Part shown: piece by piece, positions 2,571 through 17,481 of the stretch | How positions within the stretch are numbered: the stretch's first letter is position 1 | Layout of the letters: each line of letters starts with the position of its first letter | DNA from: Deltaproteobacteria bacterium | Lineage (GTDB): Bacteria > Myxococcota_A > Polyangia > JAAYKL01 | Reading direction: 5' to 3' | Length of the DNA stretch: 48,259 nt | Assembly: GCA_016937935.1 (NCBI GenBank) | Contig: JAFGVO010000264.1 | Location: 1-48,259, forward strand | Program-made: the position numbers and the translations under genes | Notes under the pieces: generated by a model | Seen by the model: only the letters and a program-made list of their open reading frames with translations | Database searches by the model: none | Told to the model about the DNA's origin: nothing

Positions 2571-3194
2571 ATGACACCAAAGAAAATCGCAGAAAAAACA
2601 GTAGAAAGACTAATTGTCATTCATCGAATTCTTGTATCCCAAAAAGCAAATAATATTAAGTTTATCTATTCCCATGAAATTGCAAAACTTTCAGGTTTAA
2701 GCGCTCCACAGATAAGGCGGGATCTCATGCTGGTAGGATACTCGGGAAGCCCGGCCAAAGGCTACGATGTCAGTAAACTTAAAAATACGATAAATACATT
2801 TTTGGGCTTCAAGAAAAATAAAGAGGCTGTACTTGTTGGACTGGGATACCTTGGACGGGCACTTTTAGGATATTTTAACGGTCAGGATTCAAACATCAAA
2901 TTCTCCATGGCTTTTGATATTAATCCCGAACGGGTAAATCGAATCATCTCAGGTGTAAACTGCTATCATATTGATGAAATGGGCTCCCGATTAAGCTCAT
3001 CAAACATAAATATATGCGTTATTGCAGTACCAAAGCAAAGCGCCCAGGAAGTTGCCTGGACCGCTGTGGATAATAAAATAATCTCAATCTTGAACTTTGC
3101 CCCCCAACATTTACGGGTTCCTGAAAATGTTCACGTTGAAAACCTGGACCTCATGACAATGTTAGAAAAAGCGGCTTATTACTCAATGGAATAA
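2571..3194 (+). CDS. rex: redox-sensing transcriptional repressor Rex
   Basis: The ORF track starts at GTG 2523, but ATG 2571 has a GAGG RBS about 7 nt upstream. The N-terminus is a winged helix (SHEIAKLSGLSAPQIRRDLMLVGYSGSPAKGYDV), followed by a Rossmann GLGYLGRAL NAD(H) motif. Confidence 0.9.
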   Translation: MTPKKIAEKTVERLIVIHRILVSQKANNIKFIYSHEIAKLSGLSAPQIRRDLMLVGYSGSPAKGYDVSKLKNTINTFLGFKKNKEAVLVGLGYLGRALLGYFNGQDSNIKFSMAFDINPERVNRIISGVNCYHIDEMGSRLSSSNINICVIAVPKQSAQEVAWTAVDNKIISILNFAPQHLRVPENVHVENLDLMTMLEKAAYYSME

Positions 3195-3216
3195 TTTTTT
3201 ATAAAGGGTGGAATAT

Positions 3217-3708
3217 ATGAGTGAAATTAAACAGATAGAAAACATTTTAGAAAATTACAAAGACTCAGGGAGAGAAATGCTGATTCCTGTTCTTCAAGAG
3301 GTTCAGGAAGAGATCGGCTATCTTTCAAAAGATGCAGTAATTATTATTGGAAAGAGCCTTAAACTCCCCACAAGTAAAATATACGGGGTGGCTACATTTT
3401 ATAATCAGTTCAGGTTTCAGAAACAGGGAGCCTGTCATCTTCAGATATGCAGAGGAACAGCTTGCCATGTTAAAGGTTCAGCAAATATTCTCGAATCTTT
3501 TGAAAGAAATCTGAATATTAAAGCCGGTGAAACTACAAAAGATGGAAAATTTTCCATCGAAGTTGTCGCCTGCATCGGTGCTTGCGGTCTGGCTCCTGTC
3601 ATTGCTGCAAACGGGGAATTTCACGCAAGGCTTAAAGAAGACAATGTAAATGGAATAATTGATAGCTACAAATCAGATGAACCAACTGAAAAGAAGGTAA
3701 AACAGTGA
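3217..3708 (+). CDS. hydC: [FeFe]-hydrogenase NuoE-like [2Fe-2S] subunit (HydC/HndA type)
   Basis: Thioredoxin-like [2Fe-2S] ferredoxin pattern C-x4-C ... C-x3-C (CRGTACHVKG ... ACIGACGLAP). ATG 3217 is preceded by AAGGGTGG. The ORF track starts 9 nt earlier at GTG. Confidence 0.9.
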   Translation: MSEIKQIENILENYKDSGREMLIPVLQEVQEEIGYLSKDAVIIIGKSLKLPTSKIYGVATFYNQFRFQKQGACHLQICRGTACHVKGSANILESFERNLNIKAGETTKDGKFSIEVVACIGACGLAPVIAANGEFHARLKEDNVNGIIDSYKSDEPTEKKVKQ

Positions 3709-5711
3709 TGAATTTAAAACCTCTTACAAAAATATTTAACGACGAAAGATGTACTCATAAGATTGAAACACCCTGCAGACACCTTTTAACATGTTTAAAT
3801 GAAGGACCTGTCTGTTATAAAAGTGACGATTCAATCAAAAATGTTGAAAACTGGAAAAGTGAAACCCTTAGAACAGCAACCCAAAAACCTCTAATAATTG
3901 TAGGTTCGGGCACCTGCGGTTTAGGAGCAGGATCACAAAGCAGTTATGATAAAATAAAAGAGTATCTTGAAGCTAACAATATTGATGCGGAACTCGCAAA
4001 AACCGGATGCATCGGTCTTTGCGCCAAGGAACCCATTGTTGATATTCAACTACCTGGAAAAAACAGAATCTCTTTTGGAATGGTAACGGAAAAAAGAGTT
4101 GAAAACCTGCTCGAATCAGTATTGGCAGGAACCCTGCCTAAAAAAGGTGTTGAAATATTATATCAGCATAGAAACGATAATGAAAGTTTTGCGGATGTTC
4201 CTTTTATTGATGAACATCCGTTTTTTAAATTTCAGAAAAGAGCGGTTCTTCTAAATTGCGGAGTAAATGACCCCGTAAGTATTGCAGACTATATTGCAAG
4301 AGGAGGCTATGCATCCCTCAGTAAAATTCTTCATTCTAAAACCAGAGATGAAGTTTGTGATGATGTTGAAAAAAGCGGTCTCAGAGGACGAGGTGGTGGC
4401 GGTTTCCTTGCGGGCAAAAAATGGAAGTTCGCTAAAAATACAGCTGCAGATCAAAAATATATGATTTGTAATGCTGATGAGGGAGATCCAGGGGCATTTA
4501 TGGATAGAGCCGTAATTGAAGGTGACCCCCACTCCCTGCTTGAAGGCCTTTCTATAGCAGCCTACGCAATTGGAGCATCTGTTGCGTACATTTATATCAG
4601 AGCAGAATACCCCCTTGCAATCAAACATCTTAATATTGCAATTGAGGACTCAAAAGCAAATGGCCTTTTAGGTTCCAATATTTTAGACAGTGGTGTTAAT
4701 CTGGAAATTAAAATCAAAAAAGGTGCCGGCGCTTTCGTATGTGGTGAAGAGACTGCTCTTATTAACAGTATCGAAGGTAAGCGGGGAATGCCGAGGCCAC
4801 GTCCGCCCTTCCCCGCTGTTAGTGGTCTGTTTGGCAAACCCACAATTATCAACAATGTCGAAACCCTTGCAAATCTTCCCGGAATTTTCAGAAACGGTGT
4901 AGAGGTATTTGCAAAATCAGGCACAGCCACAAGCAAAGGTACAAAAGTTTTTGCACTCTCGGGAAAAGTTGAAAATACAGGTCTTGTTGAAGTTGAGATG
5001 GGCACCACCATGAGAAAAATAGTTTTTGATATTGGAGGTGGTATTCCTTTTAACAATGAGTTCAAAGCTGTACAGATTGGGGGACCGTCCGGTGGCTGTA
5101 TTCCCCTTAGCCATTTAGATACTGAAGTTGATTATGAATCAATAAAAGAACTTGGTGCCATGATGGGTTCAGGAGGGCTTGTTGTAATGGATAACAAAAC
5201 CTGCATGGTTGATGTTGCAAAATTCTTTATGGATTTTATTCAATCAGAAAGTTGCGGCAAATGTATCCCCTGCAGAGAAGGCACTAAAAGAATGCTTGAG
5301 ATTCTTGAGAGAATAACTAAAGGAAGAGAGTCTGAAAGCAATATTGATGCTCTGGACAGATTCAAAGGCATTACCGAAATTGAAAAATTATCAAAAGTAA
5401 TTCAGAGCACAAGTCTCTGCGGACTTGGACAGACTGCACCAAACCCGGTTTTAAGTACACTCAAGTGGTTTAAAAATGAATACGAAGAACATGTCTTTGA
5501 ACGAAAATGCAGAGCAGGTGTCTGCAGAGAACTCGTTAAATATGAAATAAACAGCGACGCATGTACAGGGTGTATGCTCTGTATGAAAAAATGCCCTGTG
5601 GATGCGATCATGGGCGCAAAAAAGACAGCTCATTATATTATTGAGGATAAATGTATAAAATGCGGTGTCTGCTTTGATGTATGCAAACAAAATGCTGTTA
5701 AAGTAGCCTGA
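3705..5711 (+). CDS. hydB: [FeFe]-hydrogenase NuoF-like flavoprotein subunit (HydB/HndC type)
   Basis: N-terminal Trx-like [2Fe-2S] region. NADH/FMN motifs GLRGRGGGGF and CNADEGDPGAF. NuoF [4Fe-4S] motif SCGKCIPCREG...LCGLG. C-terminal 2x[4Fe-4S] ferredoxin (CTGCMLCMKKCP, CIKCGVCFDVC). The start overlaps the hydC stop (GTGATG). Confidence 0.92.
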   Translation: MMNLKPLTKIFNDERCTHKIETPCRHLLTCLNEGPVCYKSDDSIKNVENWKSETLRTATQKPLIIVGSGTCGLGAGSQSSYDKIKEYLEANNIDAELAKTGCIGLCAKEPIVDIQLPGKNRISFGMVTEKRVENLLESVLAGTLPKKGVEILYQHRNDNESFADVPFIDEHPFFKFQKRAVLLNCGVNDPVSIADYIARGGYASLSKILHSKTRDEVCDDVEKSGLRGRGGGGFLAGKKWKFAKNTAADQKYMICNADEGDPGAFMDRAVIEGDPHSLLEGLSIAAYAIGASVAYIYIRAEYPLAIKHLNIAIEDSKANGLLGSNILDSGVNLEIKIKKGAGAFVCGEETALINSIEGKRGMPRPRPPFPAVSGLFGKPTIINNVETLANLPGIFRNGVEVFAKSGTATSKGTKVFALSGKVENTGLVEVEMGTTMRKIVFDIGGGIPFNNEFKAVQIGGPSGGCIPLSHLDTEVDYESIKELGAMMGSGGLVVMDNKTCMVDVAKFFMDFIQSESCGKCIPCREGTKRMLEILERITKGRESESNIDALDRFKGITEIEKLSKVIQSTSLCGLGQTAPNPVLSTLKWFKNEYEEHVFERKCRAGVCRELVKYEINSDACTGCMLCMKKCPVDAIMGAKKTAHYIIEDKCIKCGVCFDVCKQNAVKVA

Positions 5712-5732: not shown

Positions 5733-7457
5733 ATGTGTAAAATACAAATAAATGGAAAAATTGTTGAAGCTGAAGAAGGGACAATGCTTCTTGATACCCT
5801 TAGAAATAATGGAATCAAAGTACCTACCCTTTGCAATGTGAAAGGCCTTTCACCAACTGGTGCATGCAGAATGTGTGTTGTTGAAGTAGAAGGAATGAAT
5901 AATCTTGTTCCAAGCTGTGCATTTCCCGTATCTGACGGAATGAGCGTTAAATCCCACTCTCCAAGAGCCCTTGAGGCCAGAAGAACAATTATAGAACTGC
6001 TTCTTTCAAGTCACCCCGATGATTGTAACTACTGCTCCCGGAATGGAAGCTGCGAACTTCAGTCAATGGCTGTAGAGCTTGGCATCAGACAACGAAGATA
6101 CAAGGGAAGTTACAAAAAAAGAGATCTTGACGTGTCAAATCCGGCAATTGTCAGAGACCCTGAGAAATGTATCCTCTGCGGAAGATGTGTACGCGTCTGT
6201 GAAGAGATTCAGCACGTTGCAGCAATAGATTTTACAGGAAGAGGGAGCGGTTCGGTTGTTGAGACATCATTTAATCAGGGGCTGAATGTTTCGAGCTGTG
6301 TTAACTGCGGTCAATGTCTGCTGGTCTGCCCGACCGGTGCCCTTGTTGAAAAAAGCAATGTTGATGATGTAATGAAAGCTATTATGGATAAAGACAAGCA
6401 TGTTGTATTGCAGCATGCCCCAAGTGTCTCTGTATCTCTTGCAGAAGAGTTCGGTGTAAAAGCTGGTAAAAATATTGAGGGAGAACTCGTAGCAGCAGCA
6501 AGAATCATTGGCTTTGACCGGGTTTTTGACACATCGTTCAGTGCGGACTTAACAATAATGGAAGAGGCTGCCGAACTTGTAGACAGAGTTGTAAATGGCG
6601 GAAAACTTCCCATGATGACGTCATGCTCCCCTGGATGGATTAAATTTGTAGAGCAGTTTTATCCTGAATTCATCGACAATTTGAGCACCTGTAAAAGTCC
6701 ACAGCAGATGATGGGCGCAATAATAAAAAGTTATTATGCACAAAGAGAAAACATCAATCCTGAAAATATAATCAGCGTTGCTGTTATGCCCTGTACCGCT
6801 AAAAAATTTGAAGCCAGCCGTAACGAGATGACGGTTAACAATATTCCTGATGTTGATTATGTATTGACAACAAGAGAGTTTGCAAAACTCATAAGGTGCC
6901 ATGGAATAAATATTGAACACATAGCACCAGAAGAACCTGATACTCCTTTTGGCGAGAGAAGCAGCGCAGGCAAACTGTTTGGAGCTTCGGGGGGAGTTAT
7001 GGAGGCAGCTATAAGGACAGCATACTTCATGATTACCGGAAAATCCATGACTGATTTAAAAGTTCAAATATTAAGAGGTCAAAAGGATCTGAAAGAAACA
7101 AGTGTTACAATTGGAGATAAAACAATTAATGTTGCTGCGGTAAGCGGACTTGAAAACGCTCAAAAACTTTTAGATGATATTAAAAACAAAAAAAGAGATT
7201 ATCAGTTTATCGAAGTTATGACATGCCCCGGAGGTTGTATCAATGGTGGAGGTCAGCCATTTAACATGGACATTGAAACTGTTAAAAAAAGAGCCTCCGC
7301 AATTTATAATGTTGATAAAAATGAGACGCTTAGACAGTCCCACGAAAACAGATCAATAAAAAGACTGTACGATGAATTTTTAATTGAGCCCCTGTCACAC
7401 AAAAGTCATGTGCTTCTTCACACAAAATATATGGACAGATCTCAGATATTAAAGTGA
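5733..7457 (+). CDS. hydA: [FeFe]-hydrogenase catalytic subunit (CpI-like M3 architecture)
   Basis: N-terminal [2Fe-2S] domain, His-ligated [4Fe-4S] (HPDDCNYCSRNGSC) and 2x[4Fe-4S] (CILCGRCVRVC, CVNCGQCLLVCP). H-cluster motifs are L1 TSCSPGW (non-canonical), L2 MPCTAKKFE and L3 EVMTCPGGCINGGGQP. GGAG RBS. Confidence 0.93.
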   Translation: MCKIQINGKIVEAEEGTMLLDTLRNNGIKVPTLCNVKGLSPTGACRMCVVEVEGMNNLVPSCAFPVSDGMSVKSHSPRALEARRTIIELLLSSHPDDCNYCSRNGSCELQSMAVELGIRQRRYKGSYKKRDLDVSNPAIVRDPEKCILCGRCVRVCEEIQHVAAIDFTGRGSGSVVETSFNQGLNVSSCVNCGQCLLVCPTGALVEKSNVDDVMKAIMDKDKHVVLQHAPSVSVSLAEEFGVKAGKNIEGELVAAARIIGFDRVFDTSFSADLTIMEEAAELVDRVVNGGKLPMMTSCSPGWIKFVEQFYPEFIDNLSTCKSPQQMMGAIIKSYYAQRENINPENIISVAVMPCTAKKFEASRNEMTVNNIPDVDYVLTTREFAKLIRCHGINIEHIAPEEPDTPFGERSSAGKLFGASGGVMEAAIRTAYFMITGKSMTDLKVQILRGQKDLKETSVTIGDKTINVAAVSGLENAQKLLDDIKNKKRDYQFIEVMTCPGGCINGGGQPFNMDIETVKKRASAIYNVDKNETLRQSHENRSIKRLYDEFLIEPLSHKSHVLLHTKYMDRSQILK

Positions 7458-7465
7458 TTTAAATT

Positions 7466-9478
7466 ATGGTTACAGGTAAAGACATCAATAAGGCATTTGT
7501 TCGTACTGCAAAAGAAAAATGCAGAGTGTGCTACACCTGCGTACGAGAGTGTCCCGCAAAAGCAATACGAATTTTTGACGGTCAAGCAGAAATAATTGCA
7601 GACCGCTGTATTGCCTGTGGTAATTGCGTTAAAGTATGCAGCCAGAATGCAAAACAGATAGTTGATTCTTCGGAGTGTATTAATGAAATTTTAAACAGTT
7701 CTAAAAAAGTTGCCGCCTGTATAGCACCAAGTTTTCCAGCAGATTTTTCTGATGTTGAACCAGAAATTTTAGTGGGAATGTTAAGTAAACTTGGCTTTGA
7801 TTATATAACAGAGGTCTCTTTTGGTGCTGATCTTGTTGCTTATAAATATAAAGAACTCATTGAAAATAGTCATGGAGAAAAATTTATTGCAACAACATGC
7901 CCTGCAATTGTTGCCTATATTGAACGATATCAGGTTGACGCATTTAAAAATCTGGCTCCAATAGTTTCACCGATGATTGCACACGCCAAAGTTTTGAAAC
8001 AGGAGTATGGGGAAGAAGTTAAATTAGTTTTTATTGGTCCATGTATCGCAAAAAAAATGGAGGCTGCATCACATAATCTTTCCGGCTATATTGATTGCGC
8101 TATAACTTTTAAAGAATTAAAACAGCTCTTCGAAGATAAAGATATTACTGCTCAAAATTCATTTAAGAAAAATTTTGACCCGCCTTATCCAGGTCTTGGT
8201 TCTCTGTTTCCTCTTAACGGTGGAATGCTGCAGGCATCAGACATCAAAGAAGATCTTGTTCTTGGGGATATAGTGGCAGCAGACGGATTATCAGAATTTG
8301 TAAGTGCAATTGGAGAATTTGCAGATGGCAATATGGATGTAAAATTACTTGAAGTTCTCTCATGCGAAGGATGCATTATGGGACCGGGTATGACAACGGA
8401 CGAGCCAAAATTCAGAAGACGTTCCAGGGTTAGCAACTATGTTAGAAACAGTGGCTACAATACAAACAACAAAGAACATCTGCTTTATTTCAACAAATAT
8501 AAAAATATTGATCTCTCAAGAAATTATACACTTTTTGATCAGAGAATTCCTTCCCCGTCAAACGAAGAATTGAACGCACTTTTAAAACGACTTGGAAAAG
8601 AGAGTGAAAAAGATGAACTTAACTGTCAGGCCTGTGGATATACAACATGCCGTGAACATGCTATCGCAATTCATAAAGGTCTTGCAGAAGATGAAATGTG
8701 TCTGCCCTTTGTAATTGAAAAATTAAAAAATACGGTTAACGCCCTCTCTGTTTCACATAAGCATCTTGAAGATACAAAAGATCAGCTTCTCCACTCGGAA
8801 AAACTGGCAAGCATGGGACAGCTTGCCGCAGGTGTTGCTCACGAGCTTAATAACCCCCTTGGTGTTGTTTTAATGTATTCACATCTGCTATTAGATGATC
8901 TGGATAAAGATACCGAACTCTATCAGGATCTGAAAATGATAACTCAACAGGCGGAACGGGGTAAAAAAATAGTGGCAAATCTTTTGGATTTTGCAAGAGA
9001 GAATAAAGTTTTAATTGAAGAAGTTGATATAAAAACCATACTCAAAAGAGCAGTTCAAAGCACAATTATTTCTGATAACATTAATGTTTCATTTAATTTT
9101 AATCACAAAAGCAAAACGTGCGAAATGGACAGGGATCAGATGCTTCAGGTGTTTACCAATATAATTTCAAATGCAAATGCGGCAATGGAAAATGGTGGTA
9201 AACTTATTATTTCAACGGATGACAATGAGGCGGAATTAAGAATAAGATTTAGTGACAATGGAGAGGGAATTGAAAAAAATAATTTAGATAAAATTTTTCA
9301 ACCATTTTTCACAACCCGCAAAATGGGTAAAGGTACCGGCCTTGGACTTGCTGTCTCTTATGGAATCGTAAAAATGCATAGAGGTCGGATTGAAGTAAAA
9401 TCGAATGCAGACAAAGAAAAAGGTGAGACAGGAAGCGAATTCCAGGTATGTCTCCCCAGGTTTGCAAAACTTGGATAA
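7466..9478 (+). CDS. hydS: HydS-type (putative sensory) [FeFe]-hydrogenase domain fused to a histidine kinase
   Basis: Domains in order:
- 2x[4Fe-4S] ferredoxin (CRVCYTCVRECP, CIACGNCVKVC).
- Short H-domain with variant motifs TTCPA, GPCIAKKME and EVLSCEGCIMGPG.
- A Cx2Cx4Cx16C motif (aa 387-412).
- HisKA H-box GVAHELNNPL.
- HATPase N-box NIISNANAAM, G1 DNGEGI and G2 GTGLGL.
I noticed no TM helices and no PAS domain. Confidence 0.85.
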   Translation: MVTGKDINKAFVRTAKEKCRVCYTCVRECPAKAIRIFDGQAEIIADRCIACGNCVKVCSQNAKQIVDSSECINEILNSSKKVAACIAPSFPADFSDVEPEILVGMLSKLGFDYITEVSFGADLVAYKYKELIENSHGEKFIATTCPAIVAYIERYQVDAFKNLAPIVSPMIAHAKVLKQEYGEEVKLVFIGPCIAKKMEAASHNLSGYIDCAITFKELKQLFEDKDITAQNSFKKNFDPPYPGLGSLFPLNGGMLQASDIKEDLVLGDIVAADGLSEFVSAIGEFADGNMDVKLLEVLSCEGCIMGPGMTTDEPKFRRRSRVSNYVRNSGYNTNNKEHLLYFNKYKNIDLSRNYTLFDQRIPSPSNEELNALLKRLGKESEKDELNCQACGYTTCREHAIAIHKGLAEDEMCLPFVIEKLKNTVNALSVSHKHLEDTKDQLLHSEKLASMGQLAAGVAHELNNPLGVVLMYSHLLLDDLDKDTELYQDLKMITQQAERGKKIVANLLDFARENKVLIEEVDIKTILKRAVQSTIISDNINVSFNFNHKSKTCEMDRDQMLQVFTNIISNANAAMENGGKLIISTDDNEAELRIRFSDNGEGIEKNNLDKIFQPFFTTRKMGKGTGLGLAVSYGIVKMHRGRIEVKSNADKEKGETGSEFQVCLPRFAKLG

Positions 9479-9488
9479 AGGTAAAAAT

Positions 9489-9914
9489 ATGAGTAAAACA
9501 GAAACTGAAAACAAAAAAATGGAAATATTGCTTGTTGACGATGATATTGATTTTTTAGAACAGCAGAAAATAATGCTGACATCTAACGGGTATGATGTAA
9601 TTTTAGCAAATACCAGAATTGATGCCGAAAAGATTCTGGAAAATAAAAAACCGGACTTCGCTATTATTGATCTGATGATGGCTGAAAAAGATGATGGATT
9701 TGTTTTAAGCTACCATATTAAAAAATTGTACCCTGATGTTCCTGTGATAATTCTTACAGCTGTTACAAGCGAGACCGGCCTTGAATTTGACCTTACCGGA
9801 AAAGATAGTGCCTGGGTAAAAGCTGATGCTCTAATGTCGAAACCCGTAAGATTTGAACAGCTTCAAAGGGAGATTGAAAGACTCTGTAAAAATAAAGTAT
9901 CTACCGATTTATAA
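9489..9914 (+). CDS. single-domain CheY-like response regulator (no output domain)
   Basis: The ORF track begins at 9405 inside hydS. ATG 9489 lies 10 nt after the hydS stop. Receiver residues: LLVDDD, phospho-acceptor in AIIDLMM, LTAV and SKP. About 141 aa with no DNA-binding domain. Confidence 0.85.
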   Translation: MSKTETENKKMEILLVDDDIDFLEQQKIMLTSNGYDVILANTRIDAEKILENKKPDFAIIDLMMAEKDDGFVLSYHIKKLYPDVPVIILTAVTSETGLEFDLTGKDSAWVKADALMSKPVRFEQLQREIERLCKNKVSTDL

Positions 9915-9944
9915 ACTTCTTGGATTTTCTACAACTGCTTTTTA

Positions 9945-11123
9945 ATGCAGGCAGTAAAGGTTAGTGAGATGAAATACCAGTTTAAAATAGTTATTACTGA
10001 TGATGAAGAGGGTATGCGTCTTGGAATCAAGCGGGCATTGGAATCAGAGGAGTGCAGAGTCTTTGATCAGGATGTTGAAGTTTCATTTGAAATATTTACA
10101 GCCGCAACAGGTGAAGAGTGCCTTGAAATTGCAGAAAAAGAATCTCCTCATCTCTACTTTTTAGATTATAAATTGCCGGGTATCAACGGCATTGAAACCC
10201 TTTCGAAGCTTAAACAGATTAATACGGACAATAATTATCTGGTAATAATGATGACAGCCTATGCGTCACTTCAAACTGCTGTAGCTGCAACAAGAGAAGG
10301 GGCATATGATTTTCTGGCGAAGCCATTTACCCCCAAAGAGGTAAGAGTCGCTTTAAAAAAATCAGTCCGTACTCTAATTTATCAGCTCCAGGCACAAAGA
10401 TTAAGAGAAGAAAAAAAGCAGGTAAGATTTGAATTTATTTCAGTACTCTCCCATGAATTAAAAGCCCCGATCGGCGCAGTGGAAGGATATTTAGATCTCA
10501 TAAGCGAAGGATATGTAACAGATAAAGAGTCAACAGACCGTATTTTAAGCAGATGCAGAACCAGGTTAAACGGAATGAGGAAACTCATTTTCGATCTTAT
10601 TGATATGACCAGGATTGAGGCTGGCACAAAAAAAAGGAATGTCAGTTTAATCAATTTCTACCCTGCTTTAAGTGAGGCAGTTGAACTTGTGGAAGCCCCA
10701 AGACAGAAACGAAATATTAAAATAAATATTACCTGCGATGAAACATTAACTTTCAATTGTGACAGAACAGAAATTGATATCGTTTTGAACAATCTAATTT
10801 CTAACGCAGTAAAATATAATAAAGACAATGGTACAGTTTCTATCACTGTTTACAAAAGAGAGACTCAACTTTTTATTGAAGTTTCAGACACTGGAATTGG
10901 CCTTACACAAAAAGAGGCAGACAAACTTTTTGGCGAATTTGTACGAATTAAAAATTCAAAAACAACTTCCATTGAAGGCTCAGGACTCGGCCTGTCAACT
11001 GTAAAAAAGATTGCGGAACTCTATAAAGGATCTGCTACTGTAAAAAGTGTTCCGGATGAGGGAACTACATTTACTGTTATTTTAAACGAGGGGGAGCATG
11101 AAGGGGCAGGTTATGAAAACTGA
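9945..11123 (+). CDS. hybrid receiver-histidine kinase (N-terminal REC, then HisKA + HATPase)
   Basis: REC domain (ITDDEEG, FLDYKLPG, MMTAY, AKPF), then H-box SVLSHELKAPI, N-box NLISNAVKYN, G1 DTGIGL and G2 GSGLGLS. An alternative start is ATG 9969 (MKYQF). No sensory or TM region. Confidence 0.85.
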   Translation: MQAVKVSEMKYQFKIVITDDEEGMRLGIKRALESEECRVFDQDVEVSFEIFTAATGEECLEIAEKESPHLYFLDYKLPGINGIETLSKLKQINTDNNYLVIMMTAYASLQTAVAATREGAYDFLAKPFTPKEVRVALKKSVRTLIYQLQAQRLREEKKQVRFEFISVLSHELKAPIGAVEGYLDLISEGYVTDKESTDRILSRCRTRLNGMRKLIFDLIDMTRIEAGTKKRNVSLINFYPALSEAVELVEAPRQKRNIKINITCDETLTFNCDRTEIDIVLNNLISNAVKYNKDNGTVSITVYKRETQLFIEVSDTGIGLTQKEADKLFGEFVRIKNSKTTSIEGSGLGLSTVKKIAELYKGSATVKSVPDEGTTFTVILNEGEHEGAGYEN

Positions 11124-12513
11124 GAATACAGAACAGAACATAATTGATGAGAATAAAATTTATTCTATTCTTCATAAAGGTTCTAAATATTCATCACAGG
11201 AGATACTTGATATCCTTAAAAGTGCCAGGGACCTGAAGGGCCTTAACATGGATAGTGTTTCAGCATTAATGACTGTTGAGGATGAAACACTTTTAAACGA
11301 AATTTTTAAAACAGCAAAAGAGATCAAAAATAAAATTTACGGACAGCGGCTGGTTATTTTTGCACCTTTATACGTTTCTAATTTATGCAATAATGAATGT
11401 ACCTATTGTGCATTTCGTGCTGGTAACAAAAACATTAAAAGAGTTGCTCTGACACAGGAACAAATTCAAGATGAAACACTTCACCTTATCAATGAGGGGC
11501 ACAAGCGAGTTCTTCTTGTAGCCGGAGAATCATATCCCCAAAACAAGTTTGAATATATTCTCCATGCAGTTGATTCTGTTTATAAAACAAAACATGCAAA
11601 TGGAGAAATAAGACGAGTCAACGTTAACATCGCGCCACTTGATCTTGCCCAGTTTAAAGAGCTGAAAAAAAGGGACATCGGCACTTATCAGCTTTTTCAG
11701 GAGACCTATCATAAGGCTACCTACAAAGATGTTCATACCAAAGGTAAAAAAGCAGATTACGATTATCGCCTTACTGCAATGGACAGGGCCATAGAAGCAG
11801 GTATTGACGATGTTGGAATTGGTGTTCTGTTTGGACTTTACGACTGGAAATTTGAAGTACTGGCACTGTTACAGCATACACAACATCTTGAAAATAAATT
11901 TGGTGTAGGTCCTCACACAATAAGTGTTCCAAGGATTGAACCTGCAGGAGGCTCAAGTTATTCTCTTAATCCCGAAAATGCGGTTTCTGATTCTGACTTT
12001 AAAAAGCTTATTGCAATCTTAAGAATAGCTGTCCCCTATACCGGAATCATAATGTCCACAAGGGAGAACAGCGAATTAAGAAGTGAAACCTTTGCCCTAG
12101 GTGTTTCACAAATATCCGCAGGAAGCCGAACAAACCCTGGAGGCTATAGTGACGAGAATGCTGATGCCCAGGCCCAGTTTTCACTTGGTGATCATCGCTG
12201 CCTTGATGAAGTTATAAAAGACATAGCATCAATGGGTTACTTCCCATCATTTTGTACGGGCTGTTACCGCCTTGGACGAACAGGTGCTGATTTTATGGAT
12301 CTTGCAAAACCCGGAGATATAAGAAATCACTGTGACCCCAATGCCATTTCAACATTCATGGAATACCTTATGGACTATGCTTCTGATGAAACAAAAAGTG
12401 CAGGATTAAAAGCAATTGAAAAAGCGTGTAAAACCATGGAGCCCATACCTGCCCAAAGATCCCGCAAATTTATTGAAAAAATTAAAAGTGGTGAACGTGA
12501 TGTCTACTGTTGA
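11098..12513 (+). CDS. hydG: [FeFe]-hydrogenase maturase HydG (radical SAM tyrosine lyase)
   Basis: Radical SAM CNNECTYC (CX3CX2C) plus the C-terminal CX2CX22C motif (CTGCYRLGRTGADFMDLAKPGDIRNHC) diagnostic of HydG. The start could be ATG 11113. It overlaps the end of the kinase gene. Confidence 0.9.
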   Translation: MKGQVMKTENTEQNIIDENKIYSILHKGSKYSSQEILDILKSARDLKGLNMDSVSALMTVEDETLLNEIFKTAKEIKNKIYGQRLVIFAPLYVSNLCNNECTYCAFRAGNKNIKRVALTQEQIQDETLHLINEGHKRVLLVAGESYPQNKFEYILHAVDSVYKTKHANGEIRRVNVNIAPLDLAQFKELKKRDIGTYQLFQETYHKATYKDVHTKGKKADYDYRLTAMDRAIEAGIDDVGIGVLFGLYDWKFEVLALLQHTQHLENKFGVGPHTISVPRIEPAGGSSYSLNPENAVSDSDFKKLIAILRIAVPYTGIIMSTRENSELRSETFALGVSQISAGSRTNPGGYSDENADAQAQFSLGDHRCLDEVIKDIASMGYFPSFCTGCYRLGRTGADFMDLAKPGDIRNHCDPNAISTFMEYLMDYASDETKSAGLKAIEKACKTMEPIPAQRSRKFIEKIKSGERDVYC

Positions 12514-13915
12514 AAATAAAATTTTGACCAGACTTGAAAGTGATCAGCTTGGACAACTTGAAATACCTGCAGATGCCCTTTATGGAATTCATACTTTAAG
12601 GGCACTTGATAATTTTAAAATATCAAATCGCAAAGTGAATCCGGTTCTGGCAAAAGCTGTTGCCACAGTCAAGCTTGCAGCTGCGAGGACAAATCGAAAT
12701 ATTGAAAAAAACGGGGAAAATTTATTAAAGTGGGATGGGATTATTAATGCCTGTGAACAACTTGCAGGTGGTGTCGGACTTGATCAGATAATAGTAGATG
12801 CTTTAAGTGGCGGAGCCGGAACAAGCATCAACATGAATGTAAATGAAGTTATCGCCAATATCACCCTCAAAGATATGAATTTAAATCCGGGAGACTATGA
12901 TAAAATATCACCTTTAAACCATATAAACTTACACCAGTCCACCAATGATGTTTTTCCGACAGCTATTAAACTGGCTTCAATTTGGGAGATTCAGTTACTT
13001 GAACAGAGCATAATTTCCCTTCAGGAGGAGTTTCAGAAAAAAGAGAAAGAGTTTTCTGATGTAGTTAAAATTGGACGCACGGAATTTCAGGATGCTGTGC
13101 TTACAACTTTAGGAAAAACAATGTCTGCAGCGGCTGATGCATTTGCCAGAGACAGATGGAGAGTTTATAAATGCATTGAACGACTCCGTGTAATAAATTT
13201 AGGCGGTACTGCTATCGGCACAGGAATTGGTGCTCCTAAAAAATACATATTTCAGATCTGTGATGAATTACGGGCAATAACAGGAATCGGTTTCGCAAGA
13301 GGTGAAAACCTCATGGATACAACACAAAACTGTGATGTCTTTGTTGAGGTATCAGGTATTTTAAAAGCCCTTGCAACATCCCTGATAAAAATATCAACGG
13401 ATTTAAGAATTCTTTCAAGCGGACCTGACAGCGGTTTTGGAGAGATTATTATTGAAGCAAAACAGGCAGGCTCATCCATTATGCCTGGCAAAGTTAATCC
13501 CGTAATTCCGGAAGCTGTTACCCAGGGTGCCATGCAGGTTATTGGAAACGACACAGTTATAACAATTGCAGCATCTTCGGGGAATCTTGAAATTAATCAA
13601 TTTTTACCATTGATTGCGGATAATCTCTTAACATCAATACAGCTTCTGACAAACAGTGTTACCTCACTAGGTGAAAACTGTATTTCAACTTTAAAGGCAG
13701 ATAAAAAAAGATGCCGCAAAAATATTGAATCCGGCACAGCTATCGCAACTGCCATTGTTCCTGTTTTAGGTTATGATGAGGTCTCAAGATTGACATCCAA
13801 AAGCATTAAAGAGGGTATTCCTCTTATACAGCTTGTTGTAAATGAAACCTCTTTATCAAATGAAGATATTGAAAAATTAACAACTCCTACAGCAGTCTGC
13901 AAACTGGGATATTAA
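12500..13915 (+). CDS. aspartate ammonia-lyase / fumarase-family lyase homolog
   Basis: The ORF track starts at 12416 inside hydG. ATG 12500 (MSTVENK) overlaps the hydG stop by 14 nt. Class II fumarase/aspartase signatures are TNDVFPT and GSSIMPGKVNP. No radical SAM motif. Confidence 0.85.
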   Translation: MSTVENKILTRLESDQLGQLEIPADALYGIHTLRALDNFKISNRKVNPVLAKAVATVKLAAARTNRNIEKNGENLLKWDGIINACEQLAGGVGLDQIIVDALSGGAGTSINMNVNEVIANITLKDMNLNPGDYDKISPLNHINLHQSTNDVFPTAIKLASIWEIQLLEQSIISLQEEFQKKEKEFSDVVKIGRTEFQDAVLTTLGKTMSAAADAFARDRWRVYKCIERLRVINLGGTAIGTGIGAPKKYIFQICDELRAITGIGFARGENLMDTTQNCDVFVEVSGILKALATSLIKISTDLRILSSGPDSGFGEIIIEAKQAGSSIMPGKVNPVIPEAVTQGAMQVIGNDTVITIAASSGNLEINQFLPLIADNLLTSIQLLTNSVTSLGENCISTLKADKKRCRKNIESGTAIATAIVPVLGYDEVSRLTSKSIKEGIPLIQLVVNETSLSNEDIEKLTTPTAVCKLGY

Positions 13916-13916
13916 A

Positions 13917-15155
13917 ATGTCAAAAAAAATAAGAACACCAAAAGGTATGCGGCTTCACATTGGTATTTTTGGCAGGCGCAATGTGGGAAAGTCCACAGTA
14001 TTAAACGCGCTTACAAATCAGAATGTGTCAATAGTTTCAAACCAGGCCGGCACAACAACCGACCCTGTTGAAAAACCAATGGAGCTTTTGCCATTAGGCC
14101 CGGTTATTTTTATTGATACCGCAGGAATCGATGACGAAGGTGATTTGGGTGAACTAAGAATTCAAAAAAGCATGAACGCTGTAAAGCGAACAGATATTGG
14201 TATTATAGTTTCTGACAGCGGAAAAATTGAAAAATTTGAACAGAGACTCATTACAATCTTTAAAGAATATAAAATTCCATTTTTTATAATTTTTAACAAA
14301 AGTGATCTTCAGGAGATTTTTCAGGAGACCGCTAATTATCTTGAAAATGAAAAAATATCATACGTAAAAACAGGTGCTAAAGATGGCATTGGAATAAACC
14401 TGATTAAAAACGAAATTATAAAGACCGCCCCTGAAGATTATCTTGCAGGCCAGCCAATTGCAGGTGATTTGGTTCCTCCTGGAGAGACCGCAATACTTGT
14501 TGTACCAATAGATAAAGAGGCTCCCAAAGGCCGTCTTATTCTTCCTCAGGTGCAGACAATCAGAGATCTTCTTGATTCTGACACAGTGGTAATGGTTGTA
14601 AAAGAGCGTGAACTCTCCCATGCATTGGATAACCTCAAACGTCCCCCTGCCCTTGTCATTACAGACTCTCAGGCATTTTTAAAAGTTGCCGCCGACACTC
14701 CTGACAATATACCAATAACAAGTTTTTCAATTCTTTTTGCCCGCTTAAAAGGAGATCTTGCCACCCAGGTAAAAGGAACCTTTGCAATTGACACATTAGA
14801 AAACGGAGACAAAATTCTTGTGGCAGAAGCGTGCACTCACCATCCAATCGGAGAAGATATCGGAAGAGTAAAAATACCAAGATGGATTACATCCTACTCA
14901 GGTAAAGATATTATTTTTGACACAGTCCAGGGACACGATTTTCCACCAAACTTAAAAGATTACAAACTGGTAATCCACTGCGGCGCATGCATGTTTAATA
15001 AAAAAGCCGTACTATCAAGAATCCTCGAGTGCAGTCTGGCGGGCGTACCAATAACCAACTACGGTCTAATAATAGCAAAAAGCCTTGGCATCTTAAAACG
15101 AGTCCTTAAACCATTCCCCGCCGCATACAATATCTTTGAAGAACTGGACGAGTAA
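13917..15155 (+). CDS. hydF: [FeFe]-hydrogenase maturase GTPase/scaffold HydF
   Basis: GTPase motifs GRRNVGKST, DTAG and NKSD. C-terminal cluster-binding CTHHP ... HCGACMF (CxH...HCxxC). The start is 1 nt after the preceding stop. Confidence 0.9.
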   Translation: MSKKIRTPKGMRLHIGIFGRRNVGKSTVLNALTNQNVSIVSNQAGTTTDPVEKPMELLPLGPVIFIDTAGIDDEGDLGELRIQKSMNAVKRTDIGIIVSDSGKIEKFEQRLITIFKEYKIPFFIIFNKSDLQEIFQETANYLENEKISYVKTGAKDGIGINLIKNEIIKTAPEDYLAGQPIAGDLVPPGETAILVVPIDKEAPKGRLILPQVQTIRDLLDSDTVVMVVKERELSHALDNLKRPPALVITDSQAFLKVAADTPDNIPITSFSILFARLKGDLATQVKGTFAIDTLENGDKILVAEACTHHPIGEDIGRVKIPRWITSYSGKDIIFDTVQGHDFPPNLKDYKLVIHCGACMFNKKAVLSRILECSLAGVPITNYGLIIAKSLGILKRVLKPFPAAYNIFEELDE

Positions 15156-17189: not shown

Positions 17190-17481
17190 TTTACTCCTCC
17201 GAACATTATTGGTGAGGGACAAACACATCCCCATACCATTCATTATTACTTTTAGTTGTTATTTTCCTTATAAATAACGAAACAAAAGCAAAAACCGCAC
17301 ATAGGTAAAACAAAGTATCTTTTTCTGATTTCTGAATGTGGCATTTGCCCTCCTAAACGCATATTATATTGTTCATGAAATAAATATCGCATTTAAGCGG
17401 GAAAATTAACAAAGAAACTTTATGTTTTGTATAAATCTGAGGAACCAGGACCTTTCAGAAAAGAGCTTTTTATCTGTTTGT

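Follow-up and report, generated by a model that had tools for sequence, protein, structure and literature searches.

How a hydrogenase that runs directly into a histidine kinase could report H2, and to which partner, was the question raised by a 670-aa protein, HydS::HK, encoded in the window (the whole stretch of DNA analysed, 48,259 nt). In the original prediction it was read, together with two adjoining receiver genes, as a candidate H2-sensing phosphorelay. The protein is identical to P0001, an NCBI entry from the MAG 'Deltaproteobacteria bacterium' labelled '4Fe-4S binding protein'. The locus was assigned to a widely distributed family of sensory [FeFe]-hydrogenases fused to a histidine kinase; together with the H2-gated relay proposed below, this reading was given a probability of about 0.6.

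Gene content of the apparent operon

Features are collected in Table 1. The order rex-hydCBA-hydS::HK-rec-rec::HK-hydG-aspA-like-hydF is apparently a single operon, with intergenic gaps of 8–30 nt or gene overlap, and no strong-stemmed terminator-like site was found on the + strand between the genes from 2523 (an upstream GTG, the alternative start of rex) to 15155. NCBIfam scores were above the cut-offs for Rex (NF003995, 183 vs 126 bits), HydA (NF040763, 'NADH-dependent [FeFe] hydrogenase, group A6', 824.8 vs 765), HydG (TIGR03955, 533.8 vs 312), the aspartate ammonia-lyase-like product (NF008909, 572 vs 510) and HydF (TIGR03918, 553.7 vs 325). For hydC, PF01257 was present in the orthologues at loci L081, L083 and L085; the position of the lyase-like gene is likewise occupied in L081. 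Within the 48 kb neither hydE nor any output-domain regulator other than Rex was found, and the 22-kb loci L081, L083 and L085 likewise yielded no output-domain regulator. Searches upstream for a sigma-54 promoter and a Rex operator gave nothing that exceeded chance. The predicted lack of an output in cis stood for the domains of the three signalling proteins and did not stand for the operon, since rex, whose product is DNA-binding, heads it, beyond the limits of the stretch 7466–11123 first described.

Table 1 Features of the hydS::HK locus (positions in the window)
Feature	Position	Strand	Basis
rex, redox-sensing repressor, first gene of apparent operon	2571..3194	+	Pfam Put_DNA-bind_N + CoA_binding
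hydC, NuoE-like 2Fe-2S subunit	3208..3708	+	ORF; conserved synteny by tblastn
hydB, NuoF-like flavoprotein subunit	3705..5711	+	Pfam Complex1_51K, NADH_4Fe-4S, Fer4
hydA, catalytic group A [FeFe]-hydrogenase subunit	5733..7457	+	Pfam Fer2_4, NADH-G_4Fe-4S_3, Fer4, Fe_hyd_lg_C (E 5.4e-96), Fe_hyd_SSU
hydS::HK, sensory-type [FeFe]-hydrogenase + histidine kinase fusion, 670 aa	7466..9478	+	ORF, Pfam, alignment, AlphaFold2, Foldseek
N-terminal 2x[4Fe-4S] ferredoxin module, aa 15-62	7508..7651	+	Pfam Fer4_10, Fer4_9; CxxCxxCxxxC from aa 19, aa 48
H-domain, aa 80-307	7703..8386	+	Pfam Fe_hyd_lg_C E 2.9e-48; TmHydA alignment; Foldseek
C-terminal Cx2Cx4Cx16C, aa 387-412, putative extra [4Fe-4S] site	8624..8701	+	Regular expression; PF04060
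Continuous signalling helix, aa 413-478, C412 through His459	8702..8899	+	AlphaFold2; conserved spacing
HisKA (aa 450-512) + HATPase_c (aa 555-664), AtoS/ZraS (NtrB)-type core	8813..9457	+	Pfam E 3.5e-15, 3.1e-21
Stand-alone receiver, CheY-like, 141 aa	9489..9914	+	Pfam Response_reg E 1.6e-14, REC at aa 13-129
Receiver-kinase hybrid, REC aa 15-137, HisKA 163-227, HATPase 273-381	9945..11123	+	Pfam
hydG, H-cluster maturase, overlaps 3' end of receiver-kinase gene	11113..12513	+	TIGR03955
Aspartate ammonia-lyase-like gene, between hydG and hydF	12530..13915	+	NF008909; Pfam Lyase_1
hydF, H-cluster maturation GTPase	13917..15155	+	TIGR03918; Pfam HydF_dimer, HydF_tetramer

Hydrogenase part of HydS::HK

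The domain order proposed for the fusion was recovered by Pfam (Fer4 dicluster, Fe_hyd_lg_C, FeS, HisKA, HATPase_c), and the residue numbers given earlier for TTCP, GPC, SCEGC, the Cx2Cx4Cx16C motif and His459 were all exact. The suggested check of the H-domain by profile and structure came out positive: besides the Pfam match (Table 1), Foldseek returned CbA5H, TmHydA and CpI, with E values between 1e-18 and 1e-21 and a probability of 1.0. H-cluster ligands are C145 (TTCP, 143–146), C193 (GPC, 191–193) and C300/C303 (SCEGC, 299–303). In the alignment with T. maritima HydA (7p5h), T144/C145 pair with the CC of TSCCP, GPC with MPC, and EVLSCEGC with EVMACNYGC; the last pairing takes a one-residue gap, so that the third motif of HydS::HK is Cx2C, not Cx3C. 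The replacements foreseen around the 2Fe site were visible in the same alignment, with T144 in place of the proton-relay Cys and with G191 and L298 replacing Met353 and Met497 of CpI. Residues 125–134 read KYKELIEN against EEAHEFYER in TmHydA, and the acidic and Arg residues of the latter are therefore lost; we take the Glu, Glu and Arg of that segment to be the group A proton-pathway residues, as mapped from CpI. The PF04060 FeS match spans aa 385–414.

Among 32 homologues, C145, P146, G191, P192, C193, K196, E199, L298, C300, G302 and C303 were invariant, as were C387, C390, C395 and C412 of the C-terminal motif, and the relay position was occupied by T, S, N, P or A, in none by Cys. Sequence conservation thus supports the earlier assignment of group C (HydS-type) hallmarks, shared by the relatives.

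Kinase part and connecting helix

For the kinase core, the top PDB match was ZraS (9jfj, E 6.6e-33), and NCBIfam AtoS/ZraS matches were partial. The phospho-acceptor His459 lies within HELNNP (codon 8840–8842). H459, E460, N462, N463 and P464, the N, G1, F and G2 box residues and the ATP-lid glycines were invariant in the 32 homologues, which suggests that the kinase is live.

In the AlphaFold2 model (pLDDT 84.1), residues 413–478 form one helix, residues 437–451 of it at pLDDT <50 in the monomer, and 310–412 are wholly helical. The linker had been described as about 40 aa of helix running straight into the H-box; the model agrees with a continuous helix, and the length of the linker was corrected to the 46 residues between C412 and H459. 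No PAS domain was found in HydS::HK by Pfam, in the all-helical 310–412 model or in the 46-residue stretch, and no membrane segment by hydropathy (highest 19-residue Kyte–Doolittle mean 1.49), both as anticipated. Counted from the final Cys of the C-terminal motif, the phospho-His lies 47 residues on in 119 of the 120 best database matches and at 8 further loci; three sequences have 40 residues instead, and the one at L102 has 33. Against 47, these values indicate that the helix changes length in evolution by whole heptads only.

Receiver proteins, relatives and synteny

Coordinates and Pfam agreed with the predicted receiver-only gene 10 nt past the hydS::HK stop codon and the REC-HisKA-HATPase hybrid that follows it. 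Orthologues of the stand-alone receiver keep the DDD, D, T and K residues and a family motif, ETG..F...W.KAD; its top PDB matches were WalR/MicA/PhoP receivers. The hybrid has a PnpS/PhoR/WalK-like kinase core (NCBIfam), with SHELKAP as the H-box in 13 short orthologues.

The best 120 database matches share the architecture of HydS::HK at 53–63% identity and come from several phyla. About 20 loci had sufficient flank, and 18 of them showed the three-gene module, whose co-occurrence had been proposed as a check, in the order hydCBA-hydS::HK-rec-rec::HK; by this synteny both receiver genes are true partners. Carriers included Polyangiaceae, Actinomycetota, Hydrogenedentota-like and other MAGs and unbinned metagenome contigs; a Hydrogenedentota-type homologue (P0113, 53% identical) shares the gene order. 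Of 14 informative loci, 12 have rex with the cassette, placed either before hydC or immediately behind the receiver-kinase gene; rex was absent from the flanks of L098 and L099. In L091 the tblastn Rex match overlaps the end of the receiver-kinase match, and in four further loci rex lies about 6–310 nt downstream.

A further HydS-like gene, without a kinase part, is found in divergent orientation upstream of the same hydCBA cassette in L089, L091–L094 and L101. In L091 the gene after it encodes a SpoIIE/PP2C phosphatase, and the HydS-like product of this locus is 38% identical to HydS::HK over residues 12–474.

Two loci, L102 and L095, carry the kinase fusion without HydABC. In L102 the order is rpoN, hydS::HK and an overlapping gene for a REC-Sigma54_activat-HTH_8 regulator, adjoined by a [NiFe] hydrogenase operon; the family, as judged from gene content, therefore includes a member with a canonical output regulator. 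The receiver of this NtrC-type partner is 34.6% identical (E 2e-29) to the REC of the receiver-kinase, scoring 91.7 bits against it and 40.4 bits against the stand-alone REC. These similarities favour a two-tier route, from the HydS-kinase to the receiver-kinase, over a simple branch; the nearest PDB structure to the receiver-kinase REC is Spo0F, so that pairing at family level is weakly informative.

Proposed mechanism and alternatives

The system is likely, on sequence grounds, to be an H2- or redox-gated two-tier phosphorelay controlling hydrogenase expression. The relay-less H-cluster, presumably slow in turnover, would react with H2, as TmHydS and TamHydS do, and electrons, a conformational change or both would reach the C-terminal Cx2Cx4Cx16C cluster, whose role in signalling is uncertain. 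C412 caps the helix bearing His459; as this is a single helix changing length by heptads only, the state of the cluster may be passed along it as a coiled coil to set the kinase/phosphatase balance without a PAS domain, the anatomy being that of the model and the switching conjectural. The phosphoryl group would then pass to the REC of the receiver-kinase, by homology to the NtrC-type partner in the distant relative L102. Phosphorylation there could gate the second, PhoR/WalK-like kinase, which may act on the stand-alone receiver, an unlinked response regulator or both. Hydrogenase and maturase expression would be controlled in this way alongside NADH sensing by Rex, to judge from gene context. 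The locus is of use mainly as a simple system for testing bacterial H2 sensing.

A role as a general sensor of redox state or of the ferredoxin pool, in which the kinase would report cellular electron pressure and the Fe-S clusters would equilibrate with reduced ferredoxin or HydABC whether or not a mature 2Fe subsite is present, was judged unlikely. The three accessory [4Fe-4S] sites around the H-domain, the position directly after hydA in the company of rex and the lack of hydE from the window all fit such a sensor. However, conservation across phyla is complete for the four H-cluster Cys and for Lys and Glu in GPCxxKKxE, which an empty 2Fe subsite would hardly explain, hydG and hydF lie within the same operon, and both cofactor binding and reaction with H2 are established for the characterised relatives TmHydS and TamHydS (PMC8163306, PMC10055695). 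An even more doubtful possibility is that HydS::HK is an extra catalytic or structural HydABC subunit with a vestigial kinase; we consider it highly improbable. The subunit name 'BfuT' given in PMC11406978, the metabolic role for group C1 brought up in PMC8542988 and the constant adjacency of hydS::HK to hydA speak for it, but no relative has the proton-relay Cys, the 2Fe site has lost its flanking Met residues, all catalytic kinase motifs are invariant, the two receiver genes are co-conserved, and L102 and L095 have the fusion and lack HydABC.

The route downstream could also close on itself, from HydS::HK through the receiver-kinase to the stand-alone receiver and on to contact with Rex or HydABC, with no unlinked DNA-binding regulator. 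Strict co-inheritance of two His and two Asp sites with no fourth conserved signalling gene points this way, as do the lack of output-domain regulators in the window and in L081, L083 and L085, the position of rex at or shortly behind the end of the receiver-kinase gene in L091 and the four further loci, and the likeness of the second kinase to PhoR/WalK and of the stand-alone receiver to WalR/MicA/PhoP receivers. Yet we know of no precedent for a receiver acting on Rex, Rex commonly regulates fermentative hydrogenase operons without such a relay, L098 and L099 lack rex in their flanks, and the family-level similarities are weak; a closed relay of this kind was considered rather improbable, and the H2-gated two-tier relay was retained as the preferred reading.

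Comparison with known systems

TmHydS (group C, M2f; PMC8163306) shares with HydS::HK the N-terminal 2x[4Fe-4S] module, the replaced relay Cys, Gly for Met353, the C-terminal Cx2Cx4Cx16C motif and a gene near a bifurcating hydrogenase; it differs in the PAS domain that follows the Fe-S motif, where the helix of HydS::HK enters the DHp His directly, and in Ser at position 497, an invariant Leu here. TamHydS of Thermoanaerobacter mathranii (group D, M2e; PMC8163306) likewise lacks PAS, has Leu for Met497 and the same four-Cys motif, and has a histidine-kinase-like ATPase gene nearby, but no signalling domain is fused to it and position 353 is Ser, in contrast to the invariant Gly and complete HisKA-HATPase of HydS::HK. 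In the phosphatase-linked systems (Ruminococcus albus HydS; Thermoanaerobacterium HfsB with HfsC and HfsD), a sensory hydrogenase homologue regulates fermentation and hydrogenase genes, a role backed by genetic evidence (PMC5707799), whereas signalling there uses PAS and Ser/Thr phosphatase-kinase partner switching instead of His-Asp phosphotransfer. HoxBC-HoxJ-HoxA of Ralstonia eutropha, a low-activity hydrogenase acting through a histidine kinase on an NtrC-type hydrogenase-gene regulator (summarised in PMC5707799), follows the same logic as proposed here, and as in L102, in which the sensor is of the [FeFe] type beside a [NiFe] operon; its metal site and fold are unrelated to those of HydS::HK, its sensor and kinase are separate chains bridged by PAS and not one chain, and the system in the window comprises two kinases but lacks an NtrC-type output in cis.

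The kinase-linked class itself is not new. HydDB lists group C1 as 'histidine kinase-linked (putative)' [FeFe]-hydrogenases (PMC5037454), and direct HATPase fusions that take the place of PAS, beside a trimeric group A hydrogenase and Rex, are described both for an Elusimicrobia lineage V protein (10.1101/765248) and for Hydrogenedentota and Caldithrix abyssi, where the kinase-bearing C3 protein of subtype V HydABC clusters is called 'BfuT' (PMC11406978). In line with the earlier remark that such members had only been inferred from genomes, no biochemically tested one was found in the searchable literature. The accessible portions of PMC5037454, PMC11406978 and 10.1101/765248 do not mention a conserved receiver and receiver-kinase pair or a heptad-quantised linker. 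With its H-domain, HK/HATPase in place of PAS, position beside group A hydCBA and Rex nearby, HydS::HK has the architecture and setting of the catalogued kinase-linked group C enzymes and does not differ from them in kind, the placement being at the level of group C. To these the present analysis adds the three-gene synteny with hydCBA, the fixed Cys-His spacing, the NtrC-type link in L102 and Rex as the only output regulator in the 48 kb.

Domain architecture and conservation of HydS::HK

Pfam placed a 4Fe–4S dicluster module at aa 15–62 of the 670-aa HydS::HK protein, Fe_hyd_lg_C at aa 80–307 (E 2.9e-48), the PF04060 Fe–S motif at aa 385–414, HisKA at aa 450–512 (E 3.5e-15) and HATPase_c at aa 555–664 (E 3.1e-21), with Cys motifs at aa 19–29 and 48–58 (N-terminal 2x[4Fe-4S]) and at aa 387–412 (Cx2Cx4Cx16C). 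The hydrogenase domain was aligned with HydA of Thermotoga maritima (TmHydA, PDB 7p5h) using HMMER. T144–C145 were located under the two Cys of TSCCP, GPC under MPC, and EVLSCEGC was aligned to EVMACNYGC with a one-residue gap; C145, C193, C300 and C303 match the H-cluster ligand positions of TmHydA. According to this alignment, the relay Cys (CpI C299) is replaced by Thr (T144), Met353 by Gly (G191) and Met497 by Leu (L298). The TmHydA segment EEAHEFYER, which by mapping from CpI presumably holds the acidic and Arg residues that serve the group A proton pathway, was aligned to residues 125–134 of HydS::HK (KYKELIEN).

An AlphaFold2 model was calculated with 32 homologues (mean pLDDT 84.1, pTM 0.63). 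Residues 310–412 were modelled as helices only, followed by one uninterrupted helix at 413–478 with His459 within. About 430 model columns were aligned by Foldseek to the [FeFe]-hydrogenases CbA5H, TmHydA, DdHydAB and CpI at E 1e-18 to 1e-21 (best 8.8e-22), and the alignment with ZraS (PDB 9jfj) spans residues 438–658. A PAS or other sensor domain concealed in residues 310–440 was ruled out by Pfam, by the model and by the hydrogenase coverage of the Foldseek alignment; Pfam returned no PAS match in HydS::HK, C412 and H459 are separated by only 46 residues, and the model leaves no space for a PAS domain and shows no such fold. Membrane anchoring was ruled out as well, with a maximum 19-residue hydropathy of 1.49, which is below transmembrane-like values. 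The original prediction, made from the sequence without database searches, is thereby confirmed in its description of the protein: domain order and every residue number (C145 in TTCP, C193 in GPC, C300/C303 in SCEGC, 387–412, His459 in HELNNP) were reproduced by script, the PAS domain and transmembrane segment it had failed to find are absent, and the H-domain passed the profile-HMM and structure comparison it had proposed.

In an alignment of the 32 homologues, the four H-cluster Cys, P146, G191–P192, K196, E199, L298 and G302 were all invariant, as were the four C-terminal Cys of Cx2Cx4Cx16C. The relay position was occupied by Thr (19), Ser (8), Asn (2), Pro (2) or Ala (1) and never by Cys; the positions of CpI M353 and M497 were Gly and Leu, respectively, in 32/32. 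In the kinase, H459, E460, N462, N463, P464, N565, N569 and D597 were invariant, along with G599, G601, F611, G621, G623, G625 and G627 of the ATP-binding domain, and HydS::HK has the marks of the HisKA class, i.e. an H-box His in a DHp helix and N, G1, F and G2 boxes. This pattern of invariance fits a protein that binds an H-cluster but has no fast proton pathway, fused to an active kinase.

Linker between the C-terminal cluster and the kinase

The phospho-His follows the final Cys of the C-terminal motif at a distance of 47 residues in 119 of the 120 database relatives and eight related loci (L001, L002, L004, L089, L091, L095, L097 and L101), 40 in the one other database relative and in loci L098 and L099, and 33 in the distant relative L102. 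The three spacings differ by steps of exactly seven, which, together with the single AlphaFold2 helix, is the signature of a register-keeping coiled-coil signalling helix. This heptad-quantised linker is the best evidence in this analysis for a putative mechanical coupling between the C-terminal cluster domain and the kinase.

Two Lachnospiraceae hybrids of about 1000 aa, 27% identical and with the H-box HEIRTP, were found in loci L011 (10001–12955) and L013. The L011 protein reads HydS-HisKA-HATPase-REC in Pfam, and the Cys-to-His spacing is 34 in both, outside the 47/40/33 series.

Hydrogenase gene row and apparent operon

The hydS::HK gene lies in a tight row on the forward strand from about 2.5 kb to about 15.2 kb of the window. 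Intergenic gaps from rex to hydF are 8–30 nt, or the genes overlap; a sigma-70-like promoter match precedes rex, and no convincing forward-strand terminator was found before position 15155. For these reasons the row is likely a single operon.

Features of the hydrogenase gene row and its flanks (window coordinates)
Feature	Position	Strand
Four direct copies of AATGGCCTCCGTCCGGATAT, between dnaK and rex	2216–2395	
Sigma-70-like promoter match	2487–2514	
rex	2571–3194	+
hydC	3208–3708	+
hydB	3705–5711	+
hydA	5733–7457	+
hydS::HK	7466–9478	+
Stand-alone receiver, 141 aa	9489–9914	+
Receiver-kinase, 392 aa	9945–11123	+
hydG	11113–12513	+
Aspartate ammonia-lyase-like gene	12530–13915	+
hydF	13917–15155	+
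665-aa Cys-rich secreted protein	15246–17243	−

Upstream of the operon, candidate sigma-54 promoters (TGGCAC-N5-TTGCW) and Rex operators (TTGTGAA-N6-TTCACAA) were rejected, as matches to either pattern did not exceed the level of shuffled sequence and none was located in the promoter region. The four copies of AATGGCCTCCGTCCGGATAT (20 nt each, one with a single mismatch) occur nowhere else in the window, at a chance expectation of 0.02. They may represent operator sites, or else a small repeat between genes; a conserved operator array was rejected, since the rex upstream regions of six related loci contained nothing equivalent.

The aspartate ammonia-lyase-like gene separates hydG and hydF, an arrangement also seen in the related locus L081, and hydE is absent throughout the 48-kb window. 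HydA, named 'NADH-dependent [FeFe] hydrogenase, group A6' by NCBIfam, has TSCSPGW as its first H-cluster motif (near aa 296–302) versus the usual form TSCCPxW, with Ser at the cluster-ligating position of CpI C300 and the relay Cys retained; TSCSPGW is invariant across four orthologous cassettes. The Ser variant is described as common in a Hydrogenedentota study (PMC11406978) and is mentioned for Melainabacteria (PMC3787301). Convergent with hydF, the 665-aa protein carries DUF4215 repeats and a PA14 domain, and its gene appears unrelated to the hydrogenase genes.

Partner genes across related loci

Neighbourhoods were collected by exact-protein look-ups and a tblastn survey of 25 loci. The hydCBA genes lie directly upstream of hydS::HK, and the receiver and receiver-kinase genes downstream; the order hydC-hydB-hydA-hydS::HK-REC-REC::HK was kept in 18 of the roughly 20 loci whose flanks were long enough, so that the co-occurrence of the three-gene module, which had been put forward as a check, was borne out. 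In L083 the small receiver gene is relocated to just upstream. The rex gene precedes hydC in seven loci and directly follows the receiver-kinase gene in five; in L091 the tblastn matches of rex and receiver-kinase overlap. Six loci carry a longer receiver-kinase with PAS between REC and HisKA. The H-box of the receiver-kinase in the window, HELKAP, has Ala where these PAS-containing orthologues have Ser or Thr; a reading of this Ala as lost phosphatase activity was set aside.

Both receivers downstream of hydS::HK are CheY-like (Response_reg, E 1.6e-14 and E 2e-22, Pfam), and the motifs DDD...D(L)...T...K and DDE...D(Y)...T...K were conserved among 19 orthologues each, with acidic pocket, acceptor Asp, Thr and Lys retained in both. 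A search for response regulators carrying an output domain found none in the window, including 20 further ORFs, or in the 22-kb loci L081, L083 and L085.

Some loci depart from this scheme. A divergent kinase-less HydS-like gene was present in six (L089, L091–L094 and L101), where a single hydCBA is flanked by two sensor hydrogenases, kinase-less upstream and kinase-fused downstream. In L083 (4600–7761), HydB reaches 1053 aa and includes an additional GltD-like Fer4_20/Pyr_redox_2 module, suggesting that this sensor-linked hydrogenase uses a different electron partner. In L095 (7503–10076), the hydS::HK gene occurs on its own, with DDE transposase genes and fragments after it, and may be a relocated or decaying copy.

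Proposed order and mechanism of the relay

The distant relative L102 (6543–18906) encodes a 645-aa protein of the same architecture, 40% identical to HydS::HK, whose gene is preceded by rpoN and overlaps that of a canonical NtrC-type regulator (REC-Sigma54_activat-HTH_8); a second receiver protein then follows. These genes and a [NiFe] hydrogenase/MvhD/HdrA-like operon face each other, which suggests an [FeFe]-type sensor apparently wired to a [NiFe] enzyme. Compared with the window, the receiver of the NtrC-type regulator scored 91.7 bits against the REC of the receiver-kinase (34.6% identity, E 2e-29) and 40.4 bits against the stand-alone receiver (E 6e-10). The kinase core of HydS::HK is AtoS/ZraS-like, i.e. 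of the NtrB class, and that of the receiver-kinase PnpS/PhoR/WalK-like. Nearest solved structures were Spo0F for the REC of the receiver-kinase and, at only about 1e-9, the OmpR-family receivers WalR/MicA/PhoP for the stand-alone receiver. Weak but concordant, these sequence clues (the likeness of the L102 receiver, the NtrB-class first core, the PhoR/WalK-like second core and the WalR/MicA/PhoP-like receiver) favour a putative order from HydS::HK to the receiver-kinase and from there either to the stand-alone receiver or to an unlinked regulator, in preference to a simple branching at the first kinase. Autophosphorylation and transfer to a cognate receiver are putative, with indirect evidence from the co-inherited receivers and the NtrC-type partner in L102.

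In the proposed mechanism, H2 would react at the H-cluster, the C-terminal cluster would report this event, the helix would switch the protein between kinase and phosphatase activity, and the relay would control hyd gene expression. Rival readings take HydS::HK as a general redox sensor, as the start of a closed relay ending on Rex or HydABC, or as an extra catalytic subunit. Caution about the cluster step comes from the sensory-type hydrogenase TamHydS of Thermoanaerobacter mathranii, in which the C-terminal cluster was found dispensable for catalysis and earlier signalling proposals were questioned (PMC13104023). The analysis itself shows the anatomy, its conservation, the heptad-quantised helix, the co-inherited partners and the canonical partner in L102; the mechanism is inferred. 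The closed-relay reading appears unlikely: a His-Asp-His-Asp cascade in which the PAS-less, heptad-registered helix from Fe–S ligand to phospho-His would be the input and the terminal stand-alone receiver would act on Rex or HydABC. If it were true, a single repressor or enzyme would integrate the partial pressure of H2 with the NADH/NAD+ ratio.

Distribution and comparison with known sensory hydrogenases

The best 120 database matches to HydS::HK were 595–695 aa long (one partial entry) and 53–63% identical, with the same Pfam architecture throughout, and were labelled Deltaproteobacteria, Latescibacteria, Phycisphaerae, Verrucomicrobia, KSB1, Myxococcales and Hydrogenedentes. The identical NCBI entry, from a 'Deltaproteobacteria bacterium' MAG, is named only '4Fe-4S binding protein', and the full-length protein reached no NCBIfam model. 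A single-sequence scan of genome contigs, whose patterns were too specific, recovered about four relatives of full length, its other matches being ordinary kinases; the relatives' loci were therefore taken from an alignment-based metagenome scan and exact-protein look-ups. Being widespread among uncultured anaerobes from several phyla, the cassette probably influences how H2 is produced and consumed in sediments, digesters and guts. Carriers named in the literature are Caldithrix abyssi, Ignavibacterium album and Tenuifilum thalassicum.

The kinase-linked form is not rare: its family is large, and both databases and genome papers already record it. Group C1 is defined in HydDB as 'histidine kinase-linked (putative)' (PMC5037454). 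In the Hydrogenedentota study (PMC11406978), a group C3 'BfuT' with a histidine-kinase domain is described from subtype V clusters and as common to Caldithrix, Bacteroidota clusters with two bfuT genes are reported, and kinase-bearing relatives are placed in C3 (Hydrogenedentota/Caldithrix) or C1. The literature search found no paper on the biochemistry of a kinase-fused member; in view of this and of the earlier descriptions, HydS::HK adds a member to a kind that is listed and still uncharacterised.

The predicted assignment to the HydS-type, putative sensory group C is correct, given the H-domain with its four H-cluster Cys, the replaced relay Cys and Met, both sets of Fe–S motifs including the extra four-Cys motif, and the regulatory neighbourhood. 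HydS::HK is not M2f in the strict sense, in which a PAS domain follows the C-terminal cluster as in TmHydS, since only the 46-residue helix stands there. Nor does it belong to group D (M2e, TamHydS-type), as it carries a fused kinase, and Gly is invariant at position 353 where group D has Ser/Thr; Leu at position 497 is the only resemblance (PMC8163306). The classical arrangement of phosphatase-linked systems is seen in L091 (2211–5290), where the gene of the upstream kinase-less HydS-like protein (626 aa) precedes one for a SpoIIE/PP2C phosphatase.

The locus is less a surprise than a good starting point for experiments on how putative sensory [FeFe]-hydrogenases pass their signal on. The strict 47/40/33-residue spacing is a concrete structural hypothesis that can be tested by mutation. 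Characterised sensory [FeFe]-hydrogenases have either a PAS domain or nothing at their end and therefore have no assayable output; the kinase-fused form would allow the signal to be read directly as His phosphorylation from ATP, with versus without H2, and supplies defined partners for phosphotransfer profiling.
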